Shown here in pieces: positions 8,673-61,916 of a stretch of 64,000 nucleotides of DNA. Location: the NCBI GenBank assembly GCA_964348135.1, contig CAYGBL010000002.1:41048-105047 (forward strand), read 5' to 3'. The position numbers and the translations under genes are program-made. The notes beneath the pieces are model-generated. The model was given only the letters and a program-made list of their open reading frames with translations, searched no databases and was not told the origin of the DNA. The first letter of the stretch is position 1. Each line of letters starts with the position of its first letter. This DNA comes from an uncultured Actinomycetota bacterium (GTDB taxonomy: Bacteria; Actinomycetota; Aquicultoria; JACQXZ01; CAYGBL01).

Positions 8673-10040
8673 ATGGATAAGACAACTCTTATACGAACCA
8701 AAAAGAATAAAGCTACTGAATCCCGTGAAAAAACCAAGCAATTGCTGATGCACTGGCTTGAACTAGGATCACTTAGCAATGAAAATAAAAAGCTTAAGGA
8801 ACTACTCTATGATGAGGTAACCCAACTCCCGACCCTTCCTTTATTTCTTACTGAAATCGAAAGAATGCTAAAGGAAAATAAACACGTTGGTCTTCTCTAT
8901 ATCGATATAGTTAAAGAGACGGATATCGAAAGGATTTACGGGTGGAAGGTTTTTGATCAGATCATGAAATATGTAGGTGAAATTCTGGAGCAGCTTAAAG
9001 GAAAATACTTTCGAAAAGAAGATCGAATTATACCATTACTAAAAAATGGCAATTCTTTTATACTTCTCCTTTCCCCTGCCAGAGAAAAAGAGACAATATT
9101 GATTGAAGACCTGGCCAAACTACGAAGGCGTATTGAAGTTGAATTGAGATCAGCTCTAAAAAAGGCCATGCCTTCAATTTATAATAGATTTAATTGTCAG
9201 ATTGGCTGCACTATTATTGAGAGCGAACCAAATATGAGAACTGAGAGAGTAATATTCAATGCATTGGAGAAAGCAGAAGAGAATGCCAGCTTAAGAGAGT
9301 TTGCCGAAAAGACTCGCCAGATTGAAGAACTAAGAACTATCATCCACCAGGAAAAAATAACTACACTTTTTCAACCCATCCTCGAAATTGAGTCCAAGCG
9401 CATAATTGGCTATGAGGTCTTTTGCCGGGGGCCCGAGGGGAGGTTAAAGGATCCGCAGACTCTATATAATCTCGCTATAGAGGGAGATTTAGTATGGCAG
9501 CTGGACCGTCTTTGTCGGAAAAAAGCCCTTCTTAATGCGAAGAATCTTAAAGCCAATCAGCTTTTGTTTATTAATATAAGTCCACGTGCTGTGGGTGACC
9601 CGGAATTGAGAAAAACAGCTGAATCTCTTCTACTTTTACCCCACAAACTTACTCCTGATCGTATTGTCTTTGAAATTTCCGAGAGGTCTATGGTTGTGGA
9701 TACGGATTTATTTCGTTTAGTACTTAACTACTTTAAAGCGCTTTCCTTTCTTATTTCTGTTGATGACGCAGGATCAGGTTACTATACTGGATTGGAGATC
9801 ATTGCCAAGCTCAAGCCCGATTTTGTAAAAATCGATATTCCCCTATTGCGAGATATTGACAAAGACCCTGTTCGGCAAGAGATAGTAAATACTATAATTA
9901 GATTCGCATCCAAAGTGGGTGCAAGAACTGTAGCTGAGGGCATTGAAACCGCTGAGGAACTTAAGCTTTTAAAAGAGTTAGGTGTAGATTATGTGCAGGG
10001 TTTCTTCTTTTCTCCCCTTCTTGACAGTATACCTTCCTAG
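8673..10040 (+). CDS. GGDEF(degenerate)-EAL protein with intact EAL phosphodiesterase residues
   Basis: The EAL-type motifs are EVF, DDAGSGY, KIDIPLL and AEGIET. The GGDEF region lacks the GG(D/E)EF motif. Confidence 0.75.
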   Translation: MDKTTLIRTKKNKATESREKTKQLLMHWLELGSLSNENKKLKELLYDEVTQLPTLPLFLTEIERMLKENKHVGLLYIDIVKETDIERIYGWKVFDQIMKYVGEILEQLKGKYFRKEDRIIPLLKNGNSFILLLSPAREKETILIEDLAKLRRRIEVELRSALKKAMPSIYNRFNCQIGCTIIESEPNMRTERVIFNALEKAEENASLREFAEKTRQIEELRTIIHQEKITTLFQPILEIESKRIIGYEVFCRGPEGRLKDPQTLYNLAIEGDLVWQLDRLCRKKALLNAKNLKANQLLFINISPRAVGDPELRKTAESLLLLPHKLTPDRIVFEISERSMVVDTDLFRLVLNYFKALSFLISVDDAGSGYYTGLEIIAKLKPDFVKIDIPLLRDIDKDPVRQEIVNTIIRFASKVGARTVAEGIETAEELKLLKELGVDYVQGFFFSPLLDSIPS

Positions 10041-10257: not shown

Positions 10258-10467
10258 CTACTTCATTTCAGGTGCTTTCTCTCCAATGCGGTGCCTATGT
10301 AGAAAGGCAACAAGATCACTCTCAAGTACCCTATACTCTTTTCCAAGATAAATAGCAGGCAGACGCCCAGCCTTAATGTACCGATAGATGGTCATCTTGT
10401 TTACTTTAAGCAGTTCTGCAATTTCCTTAATAGTATAAATCTTTTCCATTAAAACTGTTAGCCCCAA
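10258..10467 (-). CDS. Excisionase-family helix-turn-helix DNA-binding protein
   Basis: YTIKEIAELLKVNKMTIYRYIKAGRLPAIYLGKEYRV matches the MerR-like, excisionase-type HTH. Confidence 0.7.
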   Translation of the reverse strand: MGLTVLMEKIYTIKEIAELLKVNKMTIYRYIKAGRLPAIYLGKEYRVLESDLVAFLHRHRIGEKAPEMK

Positions 10468-10510: not shown

Positions 10511-11314
10511 TTAATTCCTACAGCCTCTCTTGAACAACTGGAGCAACCTCTCCTTAAAGCGAGGTATTGCAGGCAATCGCTTTTTACTTAATCCAGTAAT
10601 GTAAGGAAAAACTCTATTGTTAGGTGCCAATTGAAGGACACCTCTCTTGAGCATGTATATGATTACGAAAGTAAGTAAGCCAGTAAACAGATATGAATCA
10701 AGGGTGGGAATCTTATAAGGAAATGGTGAATCCACTCGGGAGTTGTATGTACTGGTACCAAAGGTCACATAAATTGTGCACTCTGTACCGGACGCATCAT
10801 TATATCCGGTTATCTTCACGTATAACCTTGCTCCCACCGGAAGAGTGCGTGCACTTGCATCAGTATAATTTACTGTTAAAATAGTGGGATTATTTAAAGC
10901 AATGCTTGTCTGTTTTGGAGTTGTGAAATAGTCGCCGTTTGTAGTATCCCCAACTGTTATATCTATCCCTGGTGAAGGATTCTTCGCCGGTTTGGTATAG
11001 TGCACATAAAGATTGAAGGTCCACGCTGAACCTGCACTGTAACTGTTGCCCGAAGCCTCAGCTGTATCCCCATACCAGGTATCAATAACCGCTGATGTTC
11101 CACCTGATAAAGCCCCACTATTTCTACTGGATTGTACCTCCGAAAGTGTATAAGAAAGTTCATCATCATAAGGAGCAGATTTTCCAGAATCATAATCCAG
11201 ATAGGTAAGCTGACTGGAGAGCGCGGTATTAGGCAGGCTCAGAAAAAGAACAATGAGTAAAATAATAGCATATATCTCACTGATAATATTGCGGTTGTTA
11301 TTTTTGAAGTACAT
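10511..11314 (-). CDS. Secreted/membrane-anchored hypothetical protein; candidate exosortase-G cargo
   Basis: An N-terminal signal-like TM is followed by a Ser/Thr/Gly/Tyr-rich beta-type ectodomain. The C-terminus reads PYKIPTLDSY followed by a TM (LFTGLLTFVIIYML), KRG and a basic tail. The gene is divergent from xrtG. Confidence 0.5.
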   Translation of the reverse strand: MYFKNNNRNIISEIYAIILLIVLFLSLPNTALSSQLTYLDYDSGKSAPYDDELSYTLSEVQSSRNSGALSGGTSAVIDTWYGDTAEASGNSYSAGSAWTFNLYVHYTKPAKNPSPGIDITVGDTTNGDYFTTPKQTSIALNNPTILTVNYTDASARTLPVGARLYVKITGYNDASGTECTIYVTFGTSTYNSRVDSPFPYKIPTLDSYLFTGLLTFVIIYMLKRGVLQLAPNNRVFPYITGLSKKRLPAIPRFKERLLQLFKRGCRN

Positions 11315-11764
11315 CGTTTTCAGGTTTACTTTTATTTACTATTATATCGATTATATTATATTATTTATTATTATACAATAATGATATAATATAGTATATT
11401 TTAATATACATCAAAACTACCGGAAAACCTCCATAAATTTGAAATAAATTTTAATTTTTAGGATTGGCCATCATAAAATAAGTCTTTGTCAGCAAAAGGC
11501 AAGTGTAGGCACCTAATATATGCATTTTTAAATTTCCGGACTGATTAAAGGTAGGCTTTACTTAGCGATTTCCAACTATATATTGTGCTATTTTATATGT
11601 TTAGCACAACATTTTGATATAAATTGCAGGTCTGATCATATTGCTAGCGAAATATCTCTTGACAAATAGATGATGCAACACCCGCACTAATTGAAGTAGC
11701 TCCTAGACATAGAACTTTAAATGTCACCAGTTTTCGCCCATAGGCAAAAACTATCCAAAATAAC

Positions 11765-12352
11765 ATGAAGCTTTATCTGTTTATAGCTATAACTATTCTT
11801 TACTTTGTCGTTGTCTTTTACTTCCGAAAGCATAAGGCCTGGCTTTCCTATTATCTCCTGGGTTCCTTTGGTTTCACTTTGATAGCTGTCTTAGCTATAA
11901 GACAGTTCGGGCTGGAAACCTATTGGGAGAAGATGCATCTTATACAGACCCATTTTGTTTCTACCCTCTTAGGCATTAAGGCACAAGTCTCCGGTTTTGA
12001 CACCATTGTTGTACCTGACCCGATCGGCTTGGTCTCCCTTAAAATAGGTATTGAATGCTCCGGTATTCTTGAGAGTGTCATTCTGATCGGTCTTATCCTT
12101 TTCTACCCTACGTATAAATCTGGAAGAAAGGTCTCACTAATAATTTTTGGTCTTATTATTACACTGGTAACCAATATAGTTCGTATACTGATTATTATTT
12201 TTATGACTCATTTCTTAGGACGGAGTGCTGTATTTTTCGCACATGCTATAGTTGGCCGCCTATTCTTCTTTGCCTGCGTCATTGCACTCTTCTGGTACAT
12301 CATCACACGGCCAACTATAGAGGAGGTTGGCAGGAAGTTGAGTATAACTTAG
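11765..12352 (+). CDS. xrtG: Exosortase family protein, XrtG-type (Gram-positive exosortase)
   Basis: 195-aa polytopic protein. The conserved Cys is in IGIECSGILES, the Arg is in TNIVRIL, and HAIVGR is also present. It sits immediately upstream of a multi-TM GT2, the typical XrtG context. Confidence 0.75.
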   Translation: MKLYLFIAITILYFVVVFYFRKHKAWLSYYLLGSFGFTLIAVLAIRQFGLETYWEKMHLIQTHFVSTLLGIKAQVSGFDTIVVPDPIGLVSLKIGIECSGILESVILIGLILFYPTYKSGRKVSLIIFGLIITLVTNIVRILIIIFMTHFLGRSAVFFAHAIVGRLFFFACVIALFWYIITRPTIEEVGRKLSIT

Positions 12353-12384: not shown

Positions 12385-14247
12385 ATGTATAATTTATGGC
12401 TTTTCCTATTAATCTGGGGAGTATGGATATTGATGCCAATCATTATTGATGGCATAGATACTCTTCTCAGACTTTTTGTAGTCCTAATTTGGGGTAGAAA
12501 CTTTGAAGAACACAAAGTGGATGATGAGAAGCTTCCCCATATTACTATCCTCATTCCAGCCTACAATGAAGAGAAGATCATCAGTCGGTGCATAAACTCA
12601 ATAAAGGTGCAGGATTACCCCCAGGAAAAAATGGAAGTCATCGTCATCGATGATGGTAGTCTTGACGCAACCTCACTGGAAGTTGCTGCGCACATAAGTG
12701 CAAATGGCAAGAATGGCAATAATATCGTAAATGGATATAAGAACCGCCAAACTAAAACTGAATTCAATGGTGCACATAAAAATGGAGAAAACCATACTAA
12801 CGGTAAAGATCGACCACCCGAAATGAGGATAAACGGCAACCGTATTCCACTTCCAGAAGAATTCAATGGCTCTATTAAACTACTTTCTTCTGACCATGCC
12901 GGGAAACCTAATGCTCTTAATGCCGGTCTTGAACATATGAATCACAGTGAACTAGTAATAACTATAGATAGTGACGTAGTGCTGGCTCCTCATGCTATCC
13001 GGAACGCTGCTTGTGCTTTTCTGAAAAATCCTGAAATGGGAGCTGCGACCGGCAATATTGAAATAAGCTGGGACATCCTTGAAGAACGTGATTCTAAGGG
13101 TAATCTCGTTCTTGACAAGGAAGGCTCTATTGTAACTAAAAAACTTAATTTCTCCCAGAATCTTCTTGCCAGATGTCAGTTTCTTGAGTATCTTGATGCC
13201 TTTCGGCTAGGGAGACAATTTCAGAGCATTATTCACTCTACCTATATCCTTGCCGGTGCTTTCTCTATCTTCCGCAGGGATGTATTAGCAAAATCACCTC
13301 TTTACCGAAGCCATACTGTATCAGAGGATTTCGATTTGACCGTTGATATCCATAAGAAACAGGTCCATGTGGGATACATTGCAGACGCTAAAGCCTACTT
13401 AGAGCCTATCATAGAATGGGATACTCTTTATGCTCAGAGAGTTAGATGGTGCCGTGGTCAACTTGAAGTCTGCGGCCTACACCGGGAAATCATTGGAAAT
13501 AAATCTTTCGGACCAATTGGATGGTTTGGTTTTCCTCAAATGCTAATCCTTGACCATACCCTTTCCTTTCCACGTCTTATTTGGACTTTCCTTATCCTCT
13601 TCTTCCCTCTCTTTGGCTATTCTCCTAAAATCATTGCCACAGCCGTATTTTTTATGTATCTATTCTATGTGGGTCTTGCTTTCTTACAGACTGTGAGTGC
13701 TTACTTTATCGTAGATGAAGATACTAAGAAACAGATAGAAAAGACCCTTGCTTTTTGTTTGGTTCTCCCTATTTACCGCCTGATGACTTTCTACTTTCGT
13801 ATGTCAGGTTATCTCTTAACCCTAAAAGAACCGCCAAGATGGAAAGTAGAAAGTCCATTAGATGCTTTAAGAAAAAGAGTAGACAATATAAGGAACGGAA
13901 ATGGAGTAATAGCTAATGGCAGGGGAAATACGACCACTTTTTTTAAGCGTCTATCGCGGATTAGAGAAAGACTATATGGGAACATACTTACATTGAGAGA
14001 TAGAAGGTGCTTCGTAAAAACGGAAAGAAATAGTAAACCAAGACTATCGCCATCCCTTGGTACTGGTTTAGATAGACTCTTTAAAAAGTGCCGCGCACTC
14101 CAGGAAGACGGAAAATACAAAAAAGCTACTTTTCTTCTTAAAAATGCTTTAAAAGCTACAGAAAACTCAAAAGACCTGCTCCTTCTCTACATTGAGCTAG
14201 GAAGGTTATCATATATAGCTAAATGGGATAAGTCTAGCTCACCATAA
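12385..14247 (+). CDS. Family 2 glycosyltransferase, exosortase-G-associated type (N- and C-terminal TM helices, Asn/Gly-rich insertion, basic C-terminal tail)
   Basis: The GT2 signatures are ILIPAYNEE, VIVIDDGS, DSD and QRVRWCRGQ (a QxxRW-like motif). TM clusters flank the catalytic domain. Confidence 0.8.
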   Translation: MYNLWLFLLIWGVWILMPIIIDGIDTLLRLFVVLIWGRNFEEHKVDDEKLPHITILIPAYNEEKIISRCINSIKVQDYPQEKMEVIVIDDGSLDATSLEVAAHISANGKNGNNIVNGYKNRQTKTEFNGAHKNGENHTNGKDRPPEMRINGNRIPLPEEFNGSIKLLSSDHAGKPNALNAGLEHMNHSELVITIDSDVVLAPHAIRNAACAFLKNPEMGAATGNIEISWDILEERDSKGNLVLDKEGSIVTKKLNFSQNLLARCQFLEYLDAFRLGRQFQSIIHSTYILAGAFSIFRRDVLAKSPLYRSHTVSEDFDLTVDIHKKQVHVGYIADAKAYLEPIIEWDTLYAQRVRWCRGQLEVCGLHREIIGNKSFGPIGWFGFPQMLILDHTLSFPRLIWTFLILFFPLFGYSPKIIATAVFFMYLFYVGLAFLQTVSAYFIVDEDTKKQIEKTLAFCLVLPIYRLMTFYFRMSGYLLTLKEPPRWKVESPLDALRKRVDNIRNGNGVIANGRGNTTTFFKRLSRIRERLYGNILTLRDRRCFVKTERNSKPRLSPSLGTGLDRLFKKCRALQEDGKYKKATFLLKNALKATENSKDLLLLYIELGRLSYIAKWDKSSSP

Positions 14248-14461: not shown

Positions 14462-15259
14462 ATGAAAAAGAGCAAAGAACTCTCCGGCTTACCTATCATA
14501 GCCCTCCATGAAGGCAAAGAGATAGGTAAAATAAGAGAACTAATAATTGATCCACAAAAAAGACAAGTTGTTGGATTCCTCATCGAAGACAGCGAGTGGT
14601 TTAGAAATCCCAAAACTTTACTTTATTCTTCTATCAAAGCATTGGGAGATGACGCAGTGATAGTAGAAACTGGAAATGCTGTTTCCAGCCTTTCTCAAAC
14701 AAATGAGCTTGAATCCCTCCTGGACCAAAAAGTAAATATTATCGATACTAGATGTATAAGTTCTGAGGGTCGTTATATGGGACGAATAACAGAGTTCCTG
14801 GTTGATACAAAAACCGGAAGAATATCAACCTTTGAGATAACCAGCCCCTCCAGCAGTCAGAAGCCGATTATGATGCCAGTAGAAGGAATATTGACTGTGG
14901 CCTCTGATTTTATAATCACTGAAGAACCAGAAAAAGCCAGCCGGCTTCACGCACAGACCATTAAGCCGTTAGATACTACTTTGAGCCGTCGCGAAATATC
15001 AGCTACACCTCCTGCTGCATCACAGGAAATGCGTAAGAAAGGTTCTGAGCCTAAACCCGATACTGAAAGTAGTGTAAGAAAAATTTTAGAAGAGCGCCAG
15101 GACGCCTATCTCGTGGGAAAAGAGGTACGTAAAGATGTAGCAGCTGACGATGGCACATTAATTATTAAGGCTGGTGATATCATAAACCCAGAAATCATTG
15201 AGAAAGCGAAACAAGCTGATAAATATCTCGCTCTTTCCTTTAGCATCAGGAGAACTTAG
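14462..15259 (+). CDS. PRC-barrel domain protein (two PRC-barrel repeats)
   Basis: SGLPIIALHEGKEIGKIRELIIDPQKRQVVGFLIE is repeated later as GRYMGRITEFLVDTKTGRISTFEI. The gene has a strong SD site (GAGGAAGGAG) and a sigma-A-like promoter (TTGAAT-17-TATTAT) upstream. Confidence 0.7.
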   Translation: MKKSKELSGLPIIALHEGKEIGKIRELIIDPQKRQVVGFLIEDSEWFRNPKTLLYSSIKALGDDAVIVETGNAVSSLSQTNELESLLDQKVNIIDTRCISSEGRYMGRITEFLVDTKTGRISTFEITSPSSSQKPIMMPVEGILTVASDFIITEEPEKASRLHAQTIKPLDTTLSRREISATPPAASQEMRKKGSEPKPDTESSVRKILEERQDAYLVGKEVRKDVAADDGTLIIKAGDIINPEIIEKAKQADKYLALSFSIRRT

Positions 15260-15656: not shown

Positions 15657-17615
15657 ATGCTCCTCCTTCTGGGAATAATGGGCTTTTACTATCTGCTAAA
15701 GCTCCGGTTTCCCAGCTGGTTAAGTTTAATAGGTGCTCTTCTTTTTCTTTCTTTCCCAATTGTTTTAAATATGGCAACCACTGGTTATACTGATCTTCCC
15801 AGTACGGCAATATCTATATGGGTTGTATATTTTCTAGTTCTTGCTCTAGAAAAAGATAGACGCTTTCATTGGTTTGCCTGGCCATTACTCATTCTTGCTG
15901 CGCTCACCCGTTTTACCGGGTTTCTTCTTCTAATTCCTATCCTCCCTCTTATGATAGGTAGAGCAAGCATAGTGAGAAATCTTAAAGATATCGCTCTCGG
16001 TTCCATTTTCTCCTTGATTATTCTCGTGCCTCTTATGATATTTTATGGCAGAGAGTTTACTGATCCCATATTTCCCTTTGCGCATGCCTTCTTTGCAGTT
16101 AGTGAGCCTGCACCTTATCTCGAAAGTTTCGCCCTCAAGCCTGATCTCTTCTGGTTCTTTAGGAACCTGAAAGACTTTACCCTACAACCGCCATTGACTG
16201 TGCTCTTTCCATTGCTTGCCTTTCTTGTAGGGCTGGGATTATCCCTATACATTTTTAATCTTATAAAAACCACAAAAATAGATATTTTACGTTATTCTTT
16301 CATAATTGCTGCTTTACTTTTCTACATCTTTGTATTTTTTAAATTCGGTTTTATTATCCGACAAACGGTACTAGTAATAATAGGCATACTTTTATATCTT
16401 CACTTCCAAAAGGCAAATACTAGAGAGATAGGTCTGGATATCATATTTCTTTTATGGTTTTTGACTTATTTTGACTTTCACAGCCACGATCCAATCAAAG
16501 TTGAACGCTACTTTGTAGTTATGGCACCGGGAGTTGTCTATGCCATTCTATTGAGCCTCAACAGCCTACTCAATTTCATTAGGATAAAGGTATTCAAAAT
16601 TTCTTTCTCCATACTTATGTCTCTGGTTCTATTACTGGCTATCTCATTTTCTTTGACAAGTGTATTTAATAGTAAAGGGGGGAAGGACATACTGGTTGAT
16701 GATGCTATTAAAACCAGTAAATGGCTCAAGAAAAATGATAGACAGCTATCCAAAGCCAAGATTTATTCTGATCTCTGGCCCATTTTCAGCTGGTATTTGA
16801 AGCAGAGGGTTGACCCTATGCCTTCCTTTAAAGACAAACGTGCATTCAATCACGAGTTGGAAAAATACGATATAGATTACTATCTCACGATTAGGGATCG
16901 GCAGTTACCCTCCTATGAAACTAAAGCTCAAATCGGTACTGTCACAGTATTAAAAAAGAATGCCAGCAAGGTTAGTAGAAAGACCCGTATTCTTTACCTG
17001 GGTATGAACTGGGAACATTACTTGGAGGAAATACTGGACTTTAAATACTTCATGTTCTATGAGCCAGGCAAATATTATCTAGGAAAATCACTATATATAG
17101 ATGGATATACTCTAGAAGAATTAAGAAAATATCCTCTTATTATTCTCTATAACTTCAGATGGCATAATCGAAAAAAAGCAGAATTCTTGCTTAAAAGTTA
17201 TGTTAAGTCAGGAGGCAGTATAATTATCGAAGCTTCTGGAAACAACGGGAGTATGCCTTATAACCTTGAAGGGGATACTTTCCTAGGTGTATCCGTCTTC
17301 CGCGAAGCTCTTCCTGCTAAACCTGTTATAAAATTTAACCCCAAGCTATCTGTCTCAGAACTGAATTTTTCACCCTTCTTATCCAACAGTCAACCCTGGT
17401 ATGGAATGACATACGAAAATCTGGATAAAGAGACGCCCTTTACTGTACTGGCAACTGCTGACGAACATACCCTAATAGCTGAGCAAAGAATAGACCGGGG
17501 AAGAATAATCTGGATAGGATTTAATTTGGTATGGCATTCTTTTAACAAGAAAAACAAAGAAGAACAAGAGCTGCTTCAGAGACTATTAACTTATGCACTC
17601 CAAAGAGATTATTAA
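15657..17615 (+). CDS. GT-C family membrane glycosyltransferase-like protein (ArnT/PMT-like), N-terminus probably extends upstream of first ATG
   Basis: Many TM helices are followed by a roughly 300-aa C-terminal soluble domain. The reading frame is open and TM-rich from 15273 onward, with no ATG, GTG or TTG. Confidence 0.6.
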   Translation: MLLLLGIMGFYYLLKLRFPSWLSLIGALLFLSFPIVLNMATTGYTDLPSTAISIWVVYFLVLALEKDRRFHWFAWPLLILAALTRFTGFLLLIPILPLMIGRASIVRNLKDIALGSIFSLIILVPLMIFYGREFTDPIFPFAHAFFAVSEPAPYLESFALKPDLFWFFRNLKDFTLQPPLTVLFPLLAFLVGLGLSLYIFNLIKTTKIDILRYSFIIAALLFYIFVFFKFGFIIRQTVLVIIGILLYLHFQKANTREIGLDIIFLLWFLTYFDFHSHDPIKVERYFVVMAPGVVYAILLSLNSLLNFIRIKVFKISFSILMSLVLLLAISFSLTSVFNSKGGKDILVDDAIKTSKWLKKNDRQLSKAKIYSDLWPIFSWYLKQRVDPMPSFKDKRAFNHELEKYDIDYYLTIRDRQLPSYETKAQIGTVTVLKKNASKVSRKTRILYLGMNWEHYLEEILDFKYFMFYEPGKYYLGKSLYIDGYTLEELRKYPLIILYNFRWHNRKKAEFLLKSYVKSGGSIIIEASGNNGSMPYNLEGDTFLGVSVFREALPAKPVIKFNPKLSVSELNFSPFLSNSQPWYGMTYENLDKETPFTVLATADEHTLIAEQRIDRGRIIWIGFNLVWHSFNKKNKEEQELLQRLLTYALQRDY

Positions 17616-54838: not shown

Positions 54839-54914
54839 TGGAGCGGGCAACGGGACTTGAACCCGCGACCTTCAGCTTGGGAAGCTGACGTTCTACCAAC
54901 TAAACTATGCCCGC
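54839..54914 (-). tRNA. tRNA-Gly (anticodon CCC)
   Basis: The minus-strand sequence is GCGGGCATAGTTTAGTTGGTAGAACGTCAGCTTCCCAAGCTGAAGGTCGCGGGTTCAAGTCCCGTTGCCCGCTCCA. It folds into a cloverleaf with a 7-bp acceptor stem, a U33-CCC-A37 anticodon loop, a TTCAAGT T-loop and an encoded CCA. Confidence 0.85.
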
Positions 54915-59862: not shown

Positions 59863-59879
59863 TATGCAGACAAACCAAT

Positions 59880-60100
59880 ATCCGTTAGGTGAGGCAACTG
59901 CTTGAACATAGGCCACTGCCCGGAAATGTCTAAAGACGCCAATGGGTAGAACAGGTATTACCGGCTTAAGGTTTTACCTAAAGTGGCTCCCCACCAGAGT
60001 TGGGGTTACGTCATGTAGTGTCAAAGCTAAACGAGGGAGGAAGATAAAACAAAATATTACTTATCCTTAACCTTTCCTCGGAAAGGTTTTCTTTTTGTAA
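59880..60100 (+). promoter_or_regulatory. M-box (ykoK leader) Mg2+ riboswitch with intrinsic terminator expression platform
   Basis: GTTAGGTGAGGC...CTGCCC..AAATGTCTAAAGACGCCAATGGGT..AACAG...TAAGGT...AGTG.CAAAGCTAAACGA matches the conserved M-box blocks of the B. subtilis mgtE leader. A terminator (CCTTTCC-TC-GGAAAGG plus TTTTCTTTTTG) lies at 60071-60097, just before the mgtE SD site. Confidence 0.85.
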
Positions 60101-60113
60101 GGAGGTGAAAATA

Positions 60114-61916
60114 ATGCGTGTTTACTTGACCCAATTGCTAAATAAGCCCGTTTTTGATTGCGAAGCCAGGTTTCTTGGAAAGATAAGCGATATAGCCGTA
60201 ACCACTGGCGAGATCTTTCCCCGAGCATCCAGTATAGCTCTTGCTAAGGATAAAGAACCTTTTATGCTTTCCTGGACCTTTGTTAAAGCATTCGATGCCG
60301 AACATATTGAGCTAAGTGCGAAGCAAAACGAGCTCAAACTCACTTTTTTACAGCCTAATGAAATTCTTCTTAGCCGTGACCTTCTAGATAAACAAATAGT
60401 AGATACACAAGGATTAAAGGTCGTAAGAGTTAATGATCTTAAGCTTACTCAAAGCGATAGTGAGCTTCGTCTTTTAGGTGCTGATGTTGGAGCTAGGGGA
60501 GTCCTGAGACGTTTGGGGCTAGAGAGGGCAGTTGATTTTCTGTCAAGACCGTTCAGATTTAGGCTTCCTGAAAATTTGATAGCCTGGAATTATATAGACC
60601 TTCTGGAAAAGGATTTATCAGCGGTTAAGCTCTCCGTCAGCCATAAAAGATTAAATGAACTCCATCCTGCTGACATTGCTGACATTCTAATTCAGCTTGA
60701 TCAGGTACAAAGAACCAAAGTTTTCCAATATCTTGACAATATCAGGGCCGCTGATGCCATTACAGAGAGTGAACCCGATCTCCAGAGTAGCTTGTTTGAA
60801 AGTTTAGACAATGAACGCGCTTCTGACATCTTGGAGGTTATGCCTCCTGATGACGCTGCTGATATTATCGCCGGGCTTCCCTATGAAAAGGCTCAGATTC
60901 TGTTAAATCTGATGGGAGTAAAAGAGGCTTCAGACATTCGCAAACTGCTTGGATATAAAGAAAATACAGCAGGTGGAATCATGACTACCGACTATATTAC
61001 AACCAAAAATAGTCAAACTGTTGAGGACACAATAAAAAGATTAAGAAGCTTAGCTCCTGACCCTGAAACAGTATCATATGTATATGTGGTAGATGACAAC
61101 AATGTACTAACTGGAGTTCTTCCTTTAAGAGACCTTGTAATGGCTTCAGCTGAGACTCGGGTAAGTGCAATTATGATTCCAGAAATTATTAAAGTAAGTG
61201 TAGACGATGATCAGGAAGAGGTAGCTAACAAGATTAGCAAATATGACCTATTGGCAGTCCCAGTGGTCGACGAACAAGAACACCTTATGGGAATAGTAAC
61301 TGTTGACGACGTACTGGAAGTTATGGAAAAAGAGAGTGTAGAAGACATCTCGATTCTAGCTGGAACACCCTCTCTTGCTCTCAAAACAAAACCAGCGGTT
61401 TCCCTAATCCAGCGCTCCGGGTGGTTAGTTATTCTTCTATTGGCTGGCGCCATCACCGGCACTATTCTCAAAGCATATTCACAGCTTCTTCAGTCTATGA
61501 TAGCCCTTGCTTTCTTCATTCCTTTAATTATCCGTCTTGGCGACGATATAAGCATCCAATCCATTGCGCTTATGCTTCAGGCGATAAAGACGGGAGAGGT
61601 TAACCGGTACCAGATTTTAAAGAAAACACTCGGTGATATAGAAGTTGGAGTCTTTATCGGCGTTATTTCAGGAATAGTAGTTTGGGTGCTCACTCTTCTG
61701 TGGAAACTCCGCCCTGATTTAGGTGCAATAATCGGTGTATCTTTAGCAGTAACCGCAGCCTGTGCTTCAATTATTGGCACACTGATTCCAATTATCCTGA
61801 ACAGATTTAACATTGACCCATCCTCCAACTGGGGCCCGGCAATCACTACTTTTGTAGGAGCACTAGGTCTCTTAATTTATTTAGGAATTGCAGCACTCTT
61901 TCAATATAGTTTCTAG
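60114..61916 (+). CDS. mgtE: Magnesium transporter MgtE with N-terminal PRC-barrel-like extension
   Basis: The SD site AAGGAGG lies 8 nt before the ATG. The sequence has MgtE_N and tandem CBS domains (VYVVDDNNVLTGVLPLRDLV, LLAVPVVDEQEHLMGIVTVDDV) and five C-terminal TM helices. An extra roughly 150-aa N-terminus resembles the PRC-barrel proteins in this window. Confidence 0.85.
   Translation: MRVYLTQLLNKPVFDCEARFLGKISDIAVTTGEIFPRASSIALAKDKEPFMLSWTFVKAFDAEHIELSAKQNELKLTFLQPNEILLSRDLLDKQIVDTQGLKVVRVNDLKLTQSDSELRLLGADVGARGVLRRLGLERAVDFLSRPFRFRLPENLIAWNYIDLLEKDLSAVKLSVSHKRLNELHPADIADILIQLDQVQRTKVFQYLDNIRAADAITESEPDLQSSLFESLDNERASDILEVMPPDDAADIIAGLPYEKAQILLNLMGVKEASDIRKLLGYKENTAGGIMTTDYITTKNSQTVEDTIKRLRSLAPDPETVSYVYVVDDNNVLTGVLPLRDLVMASAETRVSAIMIPEIIKVSVDDDQEEVANKISKYDLLAVPVVDEQEHLMGIVTVDDVLEVMEKESVEDISILAGTPSLALKTKPAVSLIQRSGWLVILLLAGAITGTILKAYSQLLQSMIALAFFIPLIIRLGDDISIQSIALMLQAIKTGEVNRYQILKKTLGDIEVGVFIGVISGIVVWVLTLLWKLRPDLGAIIGVSLAVTAACASIIGTLIPIILNRFNIDPSSNWGPAITTFVGALGLLIYLGIAALFQYSF

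Follow-up and report, generated by a model that had tools for sequence, protein, structure and literature searches.

A predicted secreted protein with a helix-abutting IPTLD tail as probable substrate of a divergently encoded XrtG-like exosortase in an uncultured Actinomycetota bacterium

Exosortase systems are widespread and are known almost wholly through comparative genomics. Here we describe a putative exosortase substrate encoded in a stretch of 64,000 nucleotides (the window) from an uncultured Actinomycetota bacterium (GenBank assembly GCA_964348135.1, contig CAYGBL010000002.1, positions 41,048 to 105,047). The protein of 267 amino acid residues (aa) ends in a short motif, a hydrophobic helix and a basic cluster, and its gene lies 450 bp away from a divergently oriented gene for a small exosortase of the XrtG type. 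We consider it probable (roughly 0.7) that the protein is the dedicated, one-to-one substrate of this enzyme and is processed by it. The same pairing had been proposed in an earlier note made from the letters of the window, and it is well supported by observations on related loci, among them the adjacency of tail and enzyme genes across the clade and the occurrence of the same tail on unrelated ectodomains. Loci are referred to by L numbers and individual proteins by P numbers.

The cargo protein and its homologues

The gene and the segments of its predicted product are:

10511..11314, minus strand: cargo gene, encoding a 267-aa secreted protein with a candidate C-terminal sorting tail; ATG start, stop codon at 10511-10513
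11216..11314, minus strand: predicted signal peptide, residues 1-33 (MYFKNNNRN, hydrophobic core, TALS/SQ), from Kyte-Doolittle hydropathy and inspection
10712..11215, minus strand: ectodomain, residues 34-201, predicted beta-sandwich of cargo family A, from an AlphaFold2 (AF2) model and the alignment with P0017, P0019, L009 and P0018
10697..10711, minus strand: signature motif IPTLD, residues 202-206, compared with the clade consensus [IV]-P-[TSAVI]-[LF]-G
10649..10696, minus strand: hydrophobic transmembrane helix SYLFTGLLTFVIIYML, residues 207-222, abutting the motif with zero spacer; Kyte-Doolittle 1.4-1.7
10640..10648, minus strand: basic cluster KRG, residues 223-225, with K223 and R224 after the helix
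10514..10639, minus strand: basic C-terminal extension, residues 226-267, 42 aa with 10 Lys/Arg and one acidic residue

The open reading frame (ORF) and its succession of motif, helix and basic cluster agree with the earlier description, as does the composition of the ectodomain, in which Thr (13.7%), Ser (12%), Tyr (9%) and Gly (8%) are abundant. Haft has set out the features by which tripartite sorting signals and their dedicated systems may be recognized (bioRxiv 10.1101/2023.06.07.544157), and most of them were found in the window system. Two of them are visible in the protein itself. The first is a signal peptide, which together with its cleavage site was assigned by inspection and Kyte-Doolittle hydropathy alone: basic residues are followed by a hydrophobic core (residues 9-28) and by TALS/SQ, with the N-terminal hydrophobic segment spanning residues 9-33 and the hydropathy peak residues 7-37. 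The second is a hydrophobic transmembrane segment followed by a basic cluster. The AF2 model, calculated from an alignment of five sequences, places helices at residues 5-26 and 205-223 and arranges about ten strands between them as a sandwich. Searches of the model against the Protein Data Bank with Foldseek returned only generic jelly-roll, carbohydrate-binding module and tumour necrosis factor-like matches with query TM-scores (template modelling scores) of at most 0.27, and we claim no function for the ectodomain from the model or from these matches.

Three independent samples yielded four contigs with the identical 267-aa protein, so that neither the ORF nor Asp206 nor the extension is an artefact of assembly or sequencing. 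The guanine plus cytosine (GC) content of the gene (0.41) resembles that of the neighbouring genes, and intergenic DNA lies at 0.29-0.32. Scans against Pfam and NCBIfam returned no match for the protein, and no obvious Shine-Dalgarno sequence was seen upstream of the gene.

Homologues are rare. Searched exhaustively with phmmer, 1.84 billion representative proteins yielded only P0017, P0018 and P0019 (E about 1e-6), and word-index searches with the protein and with the family A alignment returned only the protein itself and the protein of L009, a close relative of P0019. The alignments with P0017 and P0019 extend over the full length, signal peptide and tail included. P0017 ends in ...PIPALGWYLMLAVIIGFMFIAIRKGSLRLKRVKT, and P0019 carries ...VPTLGWPLLLAAVSFLTFFMIKKGKLSPR... 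followed by an extension of 75 residues. In both cases the gene immediately next is an XrtG-like ORF, starting with ...FYFRRRRAWLGYYLF... and ...WLFRRHKAWLSYYLLGAFGLTL..., respectively, like the exosortase of the window. P0018 possesses the same ectodomain but a different tail, which affiliates with Loki-CTERM when scored as an isolated 42-residue peptide (21.6 bits, cut-off 19.9), whereas the full protein remains under the cut-off (16.5 bits). Its gene lies amid genes for glycosyltransferases of family 2 (GT2), with no exosortase gene within 7 kb. The expected co-occurrence of homologues with xrtG thus held for those that keep the tail (P0017 and P0019/L009), each followed by an XrtG-like gene.

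A common tail beside, and fused to, XrtG-like exosortases

The enzyme next to the cargo gene is encoded at:

11765..12352, plus strand: XrtG-like exosortase, 195 aa (TIGR03110, TIGR04178, PF09721)

XrtG is its best NCBIfam family, although the score for TIGR03110 (91.6 bits) stays under the cut-off of 102.75; the generic exosortase model TIGR04178 is passed with 54.9 bits (cut-off 23). According to the alignment, the catalytic residues are intact, with Cys98 in ECSG, Arg140 in NxxR and His160. We gathered 14 relatives of this exosortase (42-64% identity) and 32 loci from GTDB species genomes. The loci fall into two groups, the canonical XrtG of Bacillota (24-33% identity to the window enzyme) and a window clade (37-64%). 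The latter is hosted by metagenome-assembled genomes (MAGs) of Actinomycetota, Coriobacteriia and Ca. Geothermocultoraceae, a few being labelled as Saccharibacteria, Methanofastidiosia or Methanomicrobia; the taxon labels are those of the depositors.

About 20 loci of the window clade encode, beside the exosortase, a protein whose tail consists of [IV]-P-[TSAVI]-[LF]-G, a stretch of some 16 hydrophobic residues and [KR][KR]G-x-L (L004, L005, L006/L007/L043, L008, L009, L013, L014, L015, L016, L017, L019, L021, L045, L046, L049 and L050). Such a gene is present in every locus of the clade for which upstream sequence is available; its position is directly upstream of the exosortase gene, save in L015, in which the two are separated by other genes. 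The signal-bearing gene and the enzyme gene are thus neighbours, as Haft describes for dedicated systems; in the window the pair is adjacent yet divergent. The cargos belong to at least three ectodomain families, between which similarity is limited to the last 30 or so residues:

Family A: the window protein, P0017, P0019/L009 and P0018
Family B: L004, L015, L006, L008, L019, L021 and the fusion proteins
Family C: L013 and L016

A signal shared by otherwise unrelated proteins, together with a homologue that bears another signal in its place (P0018), is a further feature named by Haft. In its distribution the tail behaves like a sorting signal and unlike a segment of a single protein family. 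A pattern scan for [IV]P.[LF][GDSN] followed by a hydrophobic stretch and basic residues, covering 546 kb from the window and related loci (1440 frames, each 80 aa or longer), matched the exosortase-adjacent gene in each locus that had a match at all, with two off-target frames, one of which was counted twice in near-identical loci. This specificity argues that the tail occurs beyond chance.

A direct link between tail and enzyme is found in four Coriobacteriia-type MAG loci, in which a single frame of 900-1200 residues holds both the cargo and, fused to it, the exosortase:

L020:2956-6579, fusion frame
L022:716-4270, fusion frame
L023:3049-6570, fusion frame
L024:3871-6546, fusion frame

At the junction, ...FFSVPT[LF]GE... 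is followed by a short linker, one helix and a basic cluster that runs straight into the exosortase (...RRRRRWLSFYALG...); the basic clusters read RRRR/RRRRR, QRK or SKRR and precede WL.[FM]Y. The single helix of the fusion stands in for the first helix of the exosortase. The fusions tie the substrate to the enzyme and fix the topology, with the ectodomain outside and the basic cluster inside, and they suggest that the fused exosortase domain processes its own attached cargo.

Within the clade, five XrtG-like proteins carry Ser for the catalytic Cys (ESS[AG] versus ECS[AG]; P0009, P0010, P0011, P0012 and P0014). Loci with the Ser variant (L049:269-868 and L050:3092-3679) keep the adjacent cargo with an IPTLG-type tail, which in L050 reads ...SSIPTLGYPLLFLTVTFFIFALVKKGTLQLERVQT before the stop codon. 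XrtG-like genes were also seen in L014 (labelled Methanofastidiosia) and L017 (labelled Methanomicrobia), together with cargos of 162-169 aa that carry VPTLG or VPSLG; these archaeal-binned contigs reflect either lateral transfer or mis-binning.

Departures of the window tail from the clade

The window tail deviates from its relatives in several respects that weigh against its being an ordinary, processed substrate. Position 206 is Asp (codon GAT), where all 17 other motif-aligned tails have Gly. Of the 18 aligned tails, 17 have both the Pro and the Gly of [IV]-P-x-[LF]-G, and the window retains Ile, Pro and Leu, so the signature motif that Haft expects of a sorting signal is found at the level of the clade. 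It is this signature, with Asp replacing Gly in the window, that is conserved, and not the P-x-LDSY segment put forward in the earlier note, of which DSY is not shared. A tail profile built without the window sequence assigned only 11.8 bits to the window tail and 6.2 bits to the full protein; other clade members reached 41-54 bits, most high scorers being training sequences or near-identical relatives of them. In a database of 2599 frames the score of the window tail alone is not significant, and its identification consequently rests on ectodomain homology, on register and on position.

The cargo gene also lies on the strand opposite to xrtG, unlike in every other locus, and the tripartite signal stops 42 residues short of the C-terminus. 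The structure model has low confidence (mean predicted local distance difference test score, pLDDT, 55.9). A census that started from the tail and then looked for xrtG nearby returned only chance, non-coding matches: in a DNA-pattern scan of metagenomes for VPTLGWP[LF][LF], with Phe allowed at Leu positions, 28 of 28 matches were short, non-coding or chance frames with XrtG nowhere nearby, in a collection that evidently held no known positives. Finally, we know of no experimental demonstration of cleavage by any XrtG-type exosortase.

During this work a recurrent short frame, ...QDVPTFGWPFLYFTGR.SW.LSIEYC, was noticed on unrelated contigs (L051, L052, L055, L058, L059, L068 and L069). We take it for a probable conserved non-coding element or RNA with no relation to the cargo system.

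Taken together, the departures could describe a decayed or repurposed cargo, in which the exchange of Gly for Asp renders the protein uncleavable and leaves a type-I single-pass membrane protein with a basic cytoplasmic tail of 45 residues that acts independently of the exosortase. The Asp itself, the divergent orientation, the long basic extension and the weak profile score all agree with such a history, and the replacement of Asp206 by Gly in silico raises the score of the tail from 11.8 to 19.9 bits, a gain of about 8 bits. We nonetheless regard it as unlikely. The remainder of the tail stays in register, with P203, L205, the length of the helix and KRG-VLQL all in place; VLQL after KRG corresponds to the clade pattern [KR][KR]G-x-L-[QRK]-[LMI]. 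The neighbouring exosortase is intact, and no second candidate cargo tail was found in the 64-kb window that could serve it instead.

The extension, moreover, is no sign of decay, because long extensions also occur where the Gly of the motif is intact. Most clade cargos end 3-17 residues past the basic cluster, whereas the window protein continues for 42. Extensions of 46-75 aa are present in L015 (46 aa, also very basic), L009/P0019 (75 aa, with a second hydrophobic stretch) and L049 (66 aa), four loci that represent three lineages. The basic extension after KRG had been described in the earlier note as atypical and about 37 aa long; it exists, but its length is 42 aa and it is not unique. 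Sequence conservation ends after its first six or so residues, over which VLQLAP aligns with the terminal VLRMRPA of L004 and TLQLERVQT of L050, each followed there by the stop codon. Extensions of this kind would be only weakly constrained if the enzyme cuts off all that follows the motif.

L004 stops seven residues past RRG, where the window runs on (VLQLAPNN...), and loss of an ancestral stop codon would be a simple explanation for the extension. It could also be argued from this comparison that the frame is a spurious ORF or an unexpressed pseudogene extended by read-through, all the more as the protein has no Pfam or NCBIfam match and the gene no obvious Shine-Dalgarno sequence. Such a reading is scarcely credible in view of the full-length homology to P0017 and P0019 including signal peptide and tail, the identical ORF in three samples and the gene-like GC content, and the loss of a stop codon may account for the extension in a gene that is still functional. 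We therefore keep to the reading as an exosortase substrate, in which the window protein would be an atypical, divergent member of the [IV]PxLG variant.

The XrtG-type locus and its relation to known sorting systems

The cargo and exosortase genes are embedded in a cassette with the following further features:

8673..10040, plus strand: degenerate-GGDEF/EAL cyclic di-GMP (c-di-GMP) phosphodiesterase, just upstream of the cargo slot, with synteny in related loci
10258..10467, minus strand: excisionase-family HTH_17 DNA-binding protein, 69 aa (TIGR01764 53.9 bits, PF12728 58 bits)
11315..11764, no strand: AT-rich divergent intergenic spacer between the cargo gene and the xrtG-like gene, 450 bp, 28.9% GC
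12385..14247, plus strand: membrane GT2 (XrtG-associated model TIGR03111 271 bits, cut-off 364), 65% identical to its L004 counterpart
14462..15259, plus strand: PRC-barrel protein, conserved in this locus type
15657..17615, plus strand: PTPS_related (PF10131) polytopic membrane protein, the third conserved component of the XrtG cassette

The frame of the PTPS_related protein is open from 15273 and aligns from there over 743 aa with the homologue of L004, so its true start probably lies upstream of the first ATG at 15657. Past the cassette follow further glycosyltransferases, a methyltransferase and a polysaccharide deacetylase. The locus is collinear with L004 at 51-75% amino acid identity, the cargo slot excepted: L004 holds a family B cargo there, and the window a family A cargo together with the HTH gene, both reversed. 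An origin of this flipped module as an invertible segment was considered and rejected, as no convincing flanking inverted repeats were found that would explain it, and no remnant of a family B cargo was detected in the 450-bp spacer.

The spacer matched no Rfam or riboswitch element, and promoter-like sites in it did not clearly exceed the expectation from shuffled sequence. An imperfect inverted repeat of 26 nt (11565-11627, 73% complementary, 11-nt spacer) may represent an operator. The HTH_17 gene follows the cargo gene in the same orientation after 43 bp, a pairing that is repeated on L003, and in L015 proteins of three to five tandem HTH_17 repeats are encoded on either side of the cargo gene (L015:2267-3058 and L015:5485-5979). 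The HTH_17 proteins next to cargo genes may act as regulators of the locus.

Genes for EAL or GGDEF-EAL proteins precede the cargo slot in the window, L004, L009, L045, L046, L050 and the Lactococcus lactis plasmid L011. The coordinates of three counterparts are:

L004:3936-6736, EAL/GGDEF-EAL counterpart
L046:1590-4399, EAL/GGDEF-EAL counterpart
L011:4413-6098, EAL/GGDEF-EAL counterpart

Their conservation, which includes a canonical XrtG plasmid, suggests that XrtG-type systems are controlled by c-di-GMP.

The GT2 had been suggested to glycosylate the Ser- and Thr-rich ectodomain. This finds no support, as its best matches after TIGR03111 are PgaC, NodC and CelA and it resembles processive polysaccharide synthases of the PgaC/BcsA/NodC type. 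The PTPS_related/PMT_2 membrane protein of the locus might be a more plausible candidate for a protein glycosyltransferase. The GT2 contains an Asn/Gly-rich low-complexity insertion within its GT2 domain (approximately residues 105-165), and a run of NGNGNG... was seen in L049:861-4100. Relative to the TIGR03111 model, the XrtG-associated GT2 is longer by about 130 residues at its C-terminus.

The cassette is that of the Firmicu-CTERM/XrtG system of Bacillota, which comprises a TIGR04145 cargo, a TIGR03110 exosortase, a TIGR03111 GT2 and a PTPS-related or TIGR03766 membrane protein; a GT2 of the TIGR03111 type and a PTPS-related membrane protein are both present in the window. A sorting signal for XrtG, held in the earlier note to be undefined, is thus on record, since genes annotated as Firmicu-CTERM immediately precede xrtG in Lactococcus, Lachnospira/Eubacterium and L. 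plantarum, and a 2026 paper reports the same "complete XrtG system" from the last of these (PMC12854382). Both systems have a single dedicated cargo next to an exosortase of about 195 aa, followed by the membrane GT2 and the PTPS-related protein. They also share the signal peptide and the motif-helix-basic tail of the cargo, and c-di-GMP genes upstream (in L. lactis on pBV60).

This common layout could make the window protein a divergent member of the Firmicu-CTERM family, the more so as the large family B cargos share an N-terminal domain with canonical ones (L021 versus L031, E 3e-5). The tails speak otherwise, and we give this relationship hardly any credence. Canonical cargos score 86-250 bits against TIGR04145.2 (cut-off 50), whereas the model finds no match at E values up to 10 in the window protein or in any clade cargo. 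The genes upstream of canonical xrtG end in T-[AG]-G-[ATS]-S-[TS]-G-P, a helix and KRKK, and the signature derived here from them, T-[AG]-G-[ATS]-S-[TS]-G-[PA] (seen in L011, L012 and L025-L042), is absent from the window tail, in contrast to the [IV]-P-x-[LF]-G motif of the window clade. The window ectodomain is unrelated to the Firmicu_CTERM domain of 191 positions. Further differences concern the enzymes, as the window exosortase and GT2 both fall below the family cut-offs and the exosortase is only 24-27% identical to canonical XrtG, the hosts, which in the window clade are mostly Actinomycetota/Coriobacteriia MAGs, and the orientation of the window cargo gene on the opposite strand.

On an Aneurinibacillus plasmid (NZ_CP116888.1; L010:6304-6954), the gene in front of one annotated as xrtG encodes a "hypothetical protein" with the terminus ...NTVPSFTVYGIGVATIGAGFILAKRRKKGGVC and no Firmicu-CTERM match. 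Its VPSF resembles [IV]P[TS][LF] and may be an intermediate form of the signature.

IPTL-CTERM is a signal that occurs in many copies per genome in Proteobacteria and relatives. It likewise starts with [IV]-P-T-L and stands immediately before a transmembrane helix, after which come basic residues, and the IPTL of the window is identical to its signature. In Methylomirabilis, the domain is found on an S-layer protein (PMC8671808). The tail might accordingly be read by another sorting enzyme elsewhere in the genome, either an IPTL-CTERM exosortase or an LPXTG-type sortase, the latter hinted at by the L008 cargo, which just reaches the LPXTG_anchor model (16.1 bits, cut-off 15.9). We hold this to be very improbable. 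TIGR04174.1 (cut-off 20.5) gave no match at E values up to 10 and misses all clade tails, although a control consensus peptide scored 52.3 bits. The window tail has no match to LPXTG model TIGR01167, and none of the window ORFs of at least 100 aa contains the sortase signature TLxTC. Across phyla the tail goes with the XrtG-like gene, even to the point of fusion, with one cargo per locus.

The sorting models of NCBIfam and Pfam, PEP-CTERM among them, returned no match for the window tail at E values up to 10, and no clade cargo is assigned to TIGR04145, IPTL-CTERM, PEP-CTERM or any other of these models. PEP-CTERM/XrtA and PGF-CTERM/ArtA share with the window system the tripartite signal, a motif abutting the helix, a membrane-embedded Cys/Arg/His enzyme and a link to exopolysaccharide (bioRxiv 10.1101/2023.06.07.544157). 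They differ in their motif, in a one-to-many relation of enzyme to substrates as opposed to one-to-one, and in a much larger enzyme; the host of the window system is presumably monoderm. The midcut-by-XrtH family (NF033207) also places an exosortase segment with an IPTL-like motif away from the extreme C-terminus, and the control peptide matched it at positions 33-63 of 175. It is a lead at the level of the name and of the place of this match in the profile; it shows no sequence match to the window protein. As in the choice-of-anchor families, the window ectodomain family is found with alternative anchors, [IV]PxLG in P0017, P0019 and L009 and Loki-CTERM in P0018. The window protein, however, falls into no named choice-of-anchor family, and only the large family B cargos match choice_anch_T, weakly. 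The literature search yielded no mention of the [IV]-P-x-[LF]-G motif or of an actinobacterial exosortase signal.

From these comparisons we infer a course of processing as follows. The signal peptide would direct the protein to Sec export, and the C-terminal helix (residues 207-222) with its basic cluster would keep it in the membrane with the ectodomain outside. The membrane-embedded exosortase (Cys98/Arg140/His160) would recognize the helix-abutting [IV]-P-x-[LF]-G, here in the variant IPTLD, and cleave at the motif, so that the helix and everything beyond, including the basic extension of 42 residues, would be discarded. The ectodomain would probably be handed to an acceptor in the envelope. 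The PgaC/BcsA-like nature of the adjoining GT2 suggests its polysaccharide as the acceptor, and the precedent of ArtA, which attaches a lipid to its substrate, suggests a lipid. It is likely that c-di-GMP controls the locus as a whole.

Judged from the sequences, the system would work like Firmicu-CTERM/XrtG and with the same cassette, the novelty lying in the motif, in the cargo and in an enzyme and a GT2 that each fail the family thresholds. Somewhat short of even odds, we also entertain a broader proposal, namely that the clade constitutes an undescribed sister system of XrtG/Firmicu-CTERM. It would consist of small exosortases from Actinomycetota/Coriobacteriia MAGs, some with Ser for Cys, and an "[IV]PxLG-CTERM" tail outside current models. 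The fusions would imply processing by the protein's own domain, and the window copy could be an uncleavable, membrane-retained variant or one whose tail has gained a function.

The annotation models now available (NCBIfam 20.0 and Pfam) provide no name for either the enzyme clade or its signal. The clade would extend exosortase-dependent sorting of surface proteins to Actinomycetota-type lineages and link it to a c-di-GMP-associated polysaccharide locus. It also offers a compact and tractable pair, an enzyme of 195 aa and a single adjacent substrate with a crisp signature of five residues. The natural fusions, the Cys-to-Ser enzymes and the Gly-to-Asp substrate of the window make the cleavage site, the acceptor and the need for the Gly of the motif amenable to experiment.

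Elsewhere in the window, a tRNA gene is located at 54842-54914 (minus strand), and an M-box (Mg2+) riboswitch at 59874-60045 (plus strand, 136.8 bits) precedes the ORF at 60105-61916.

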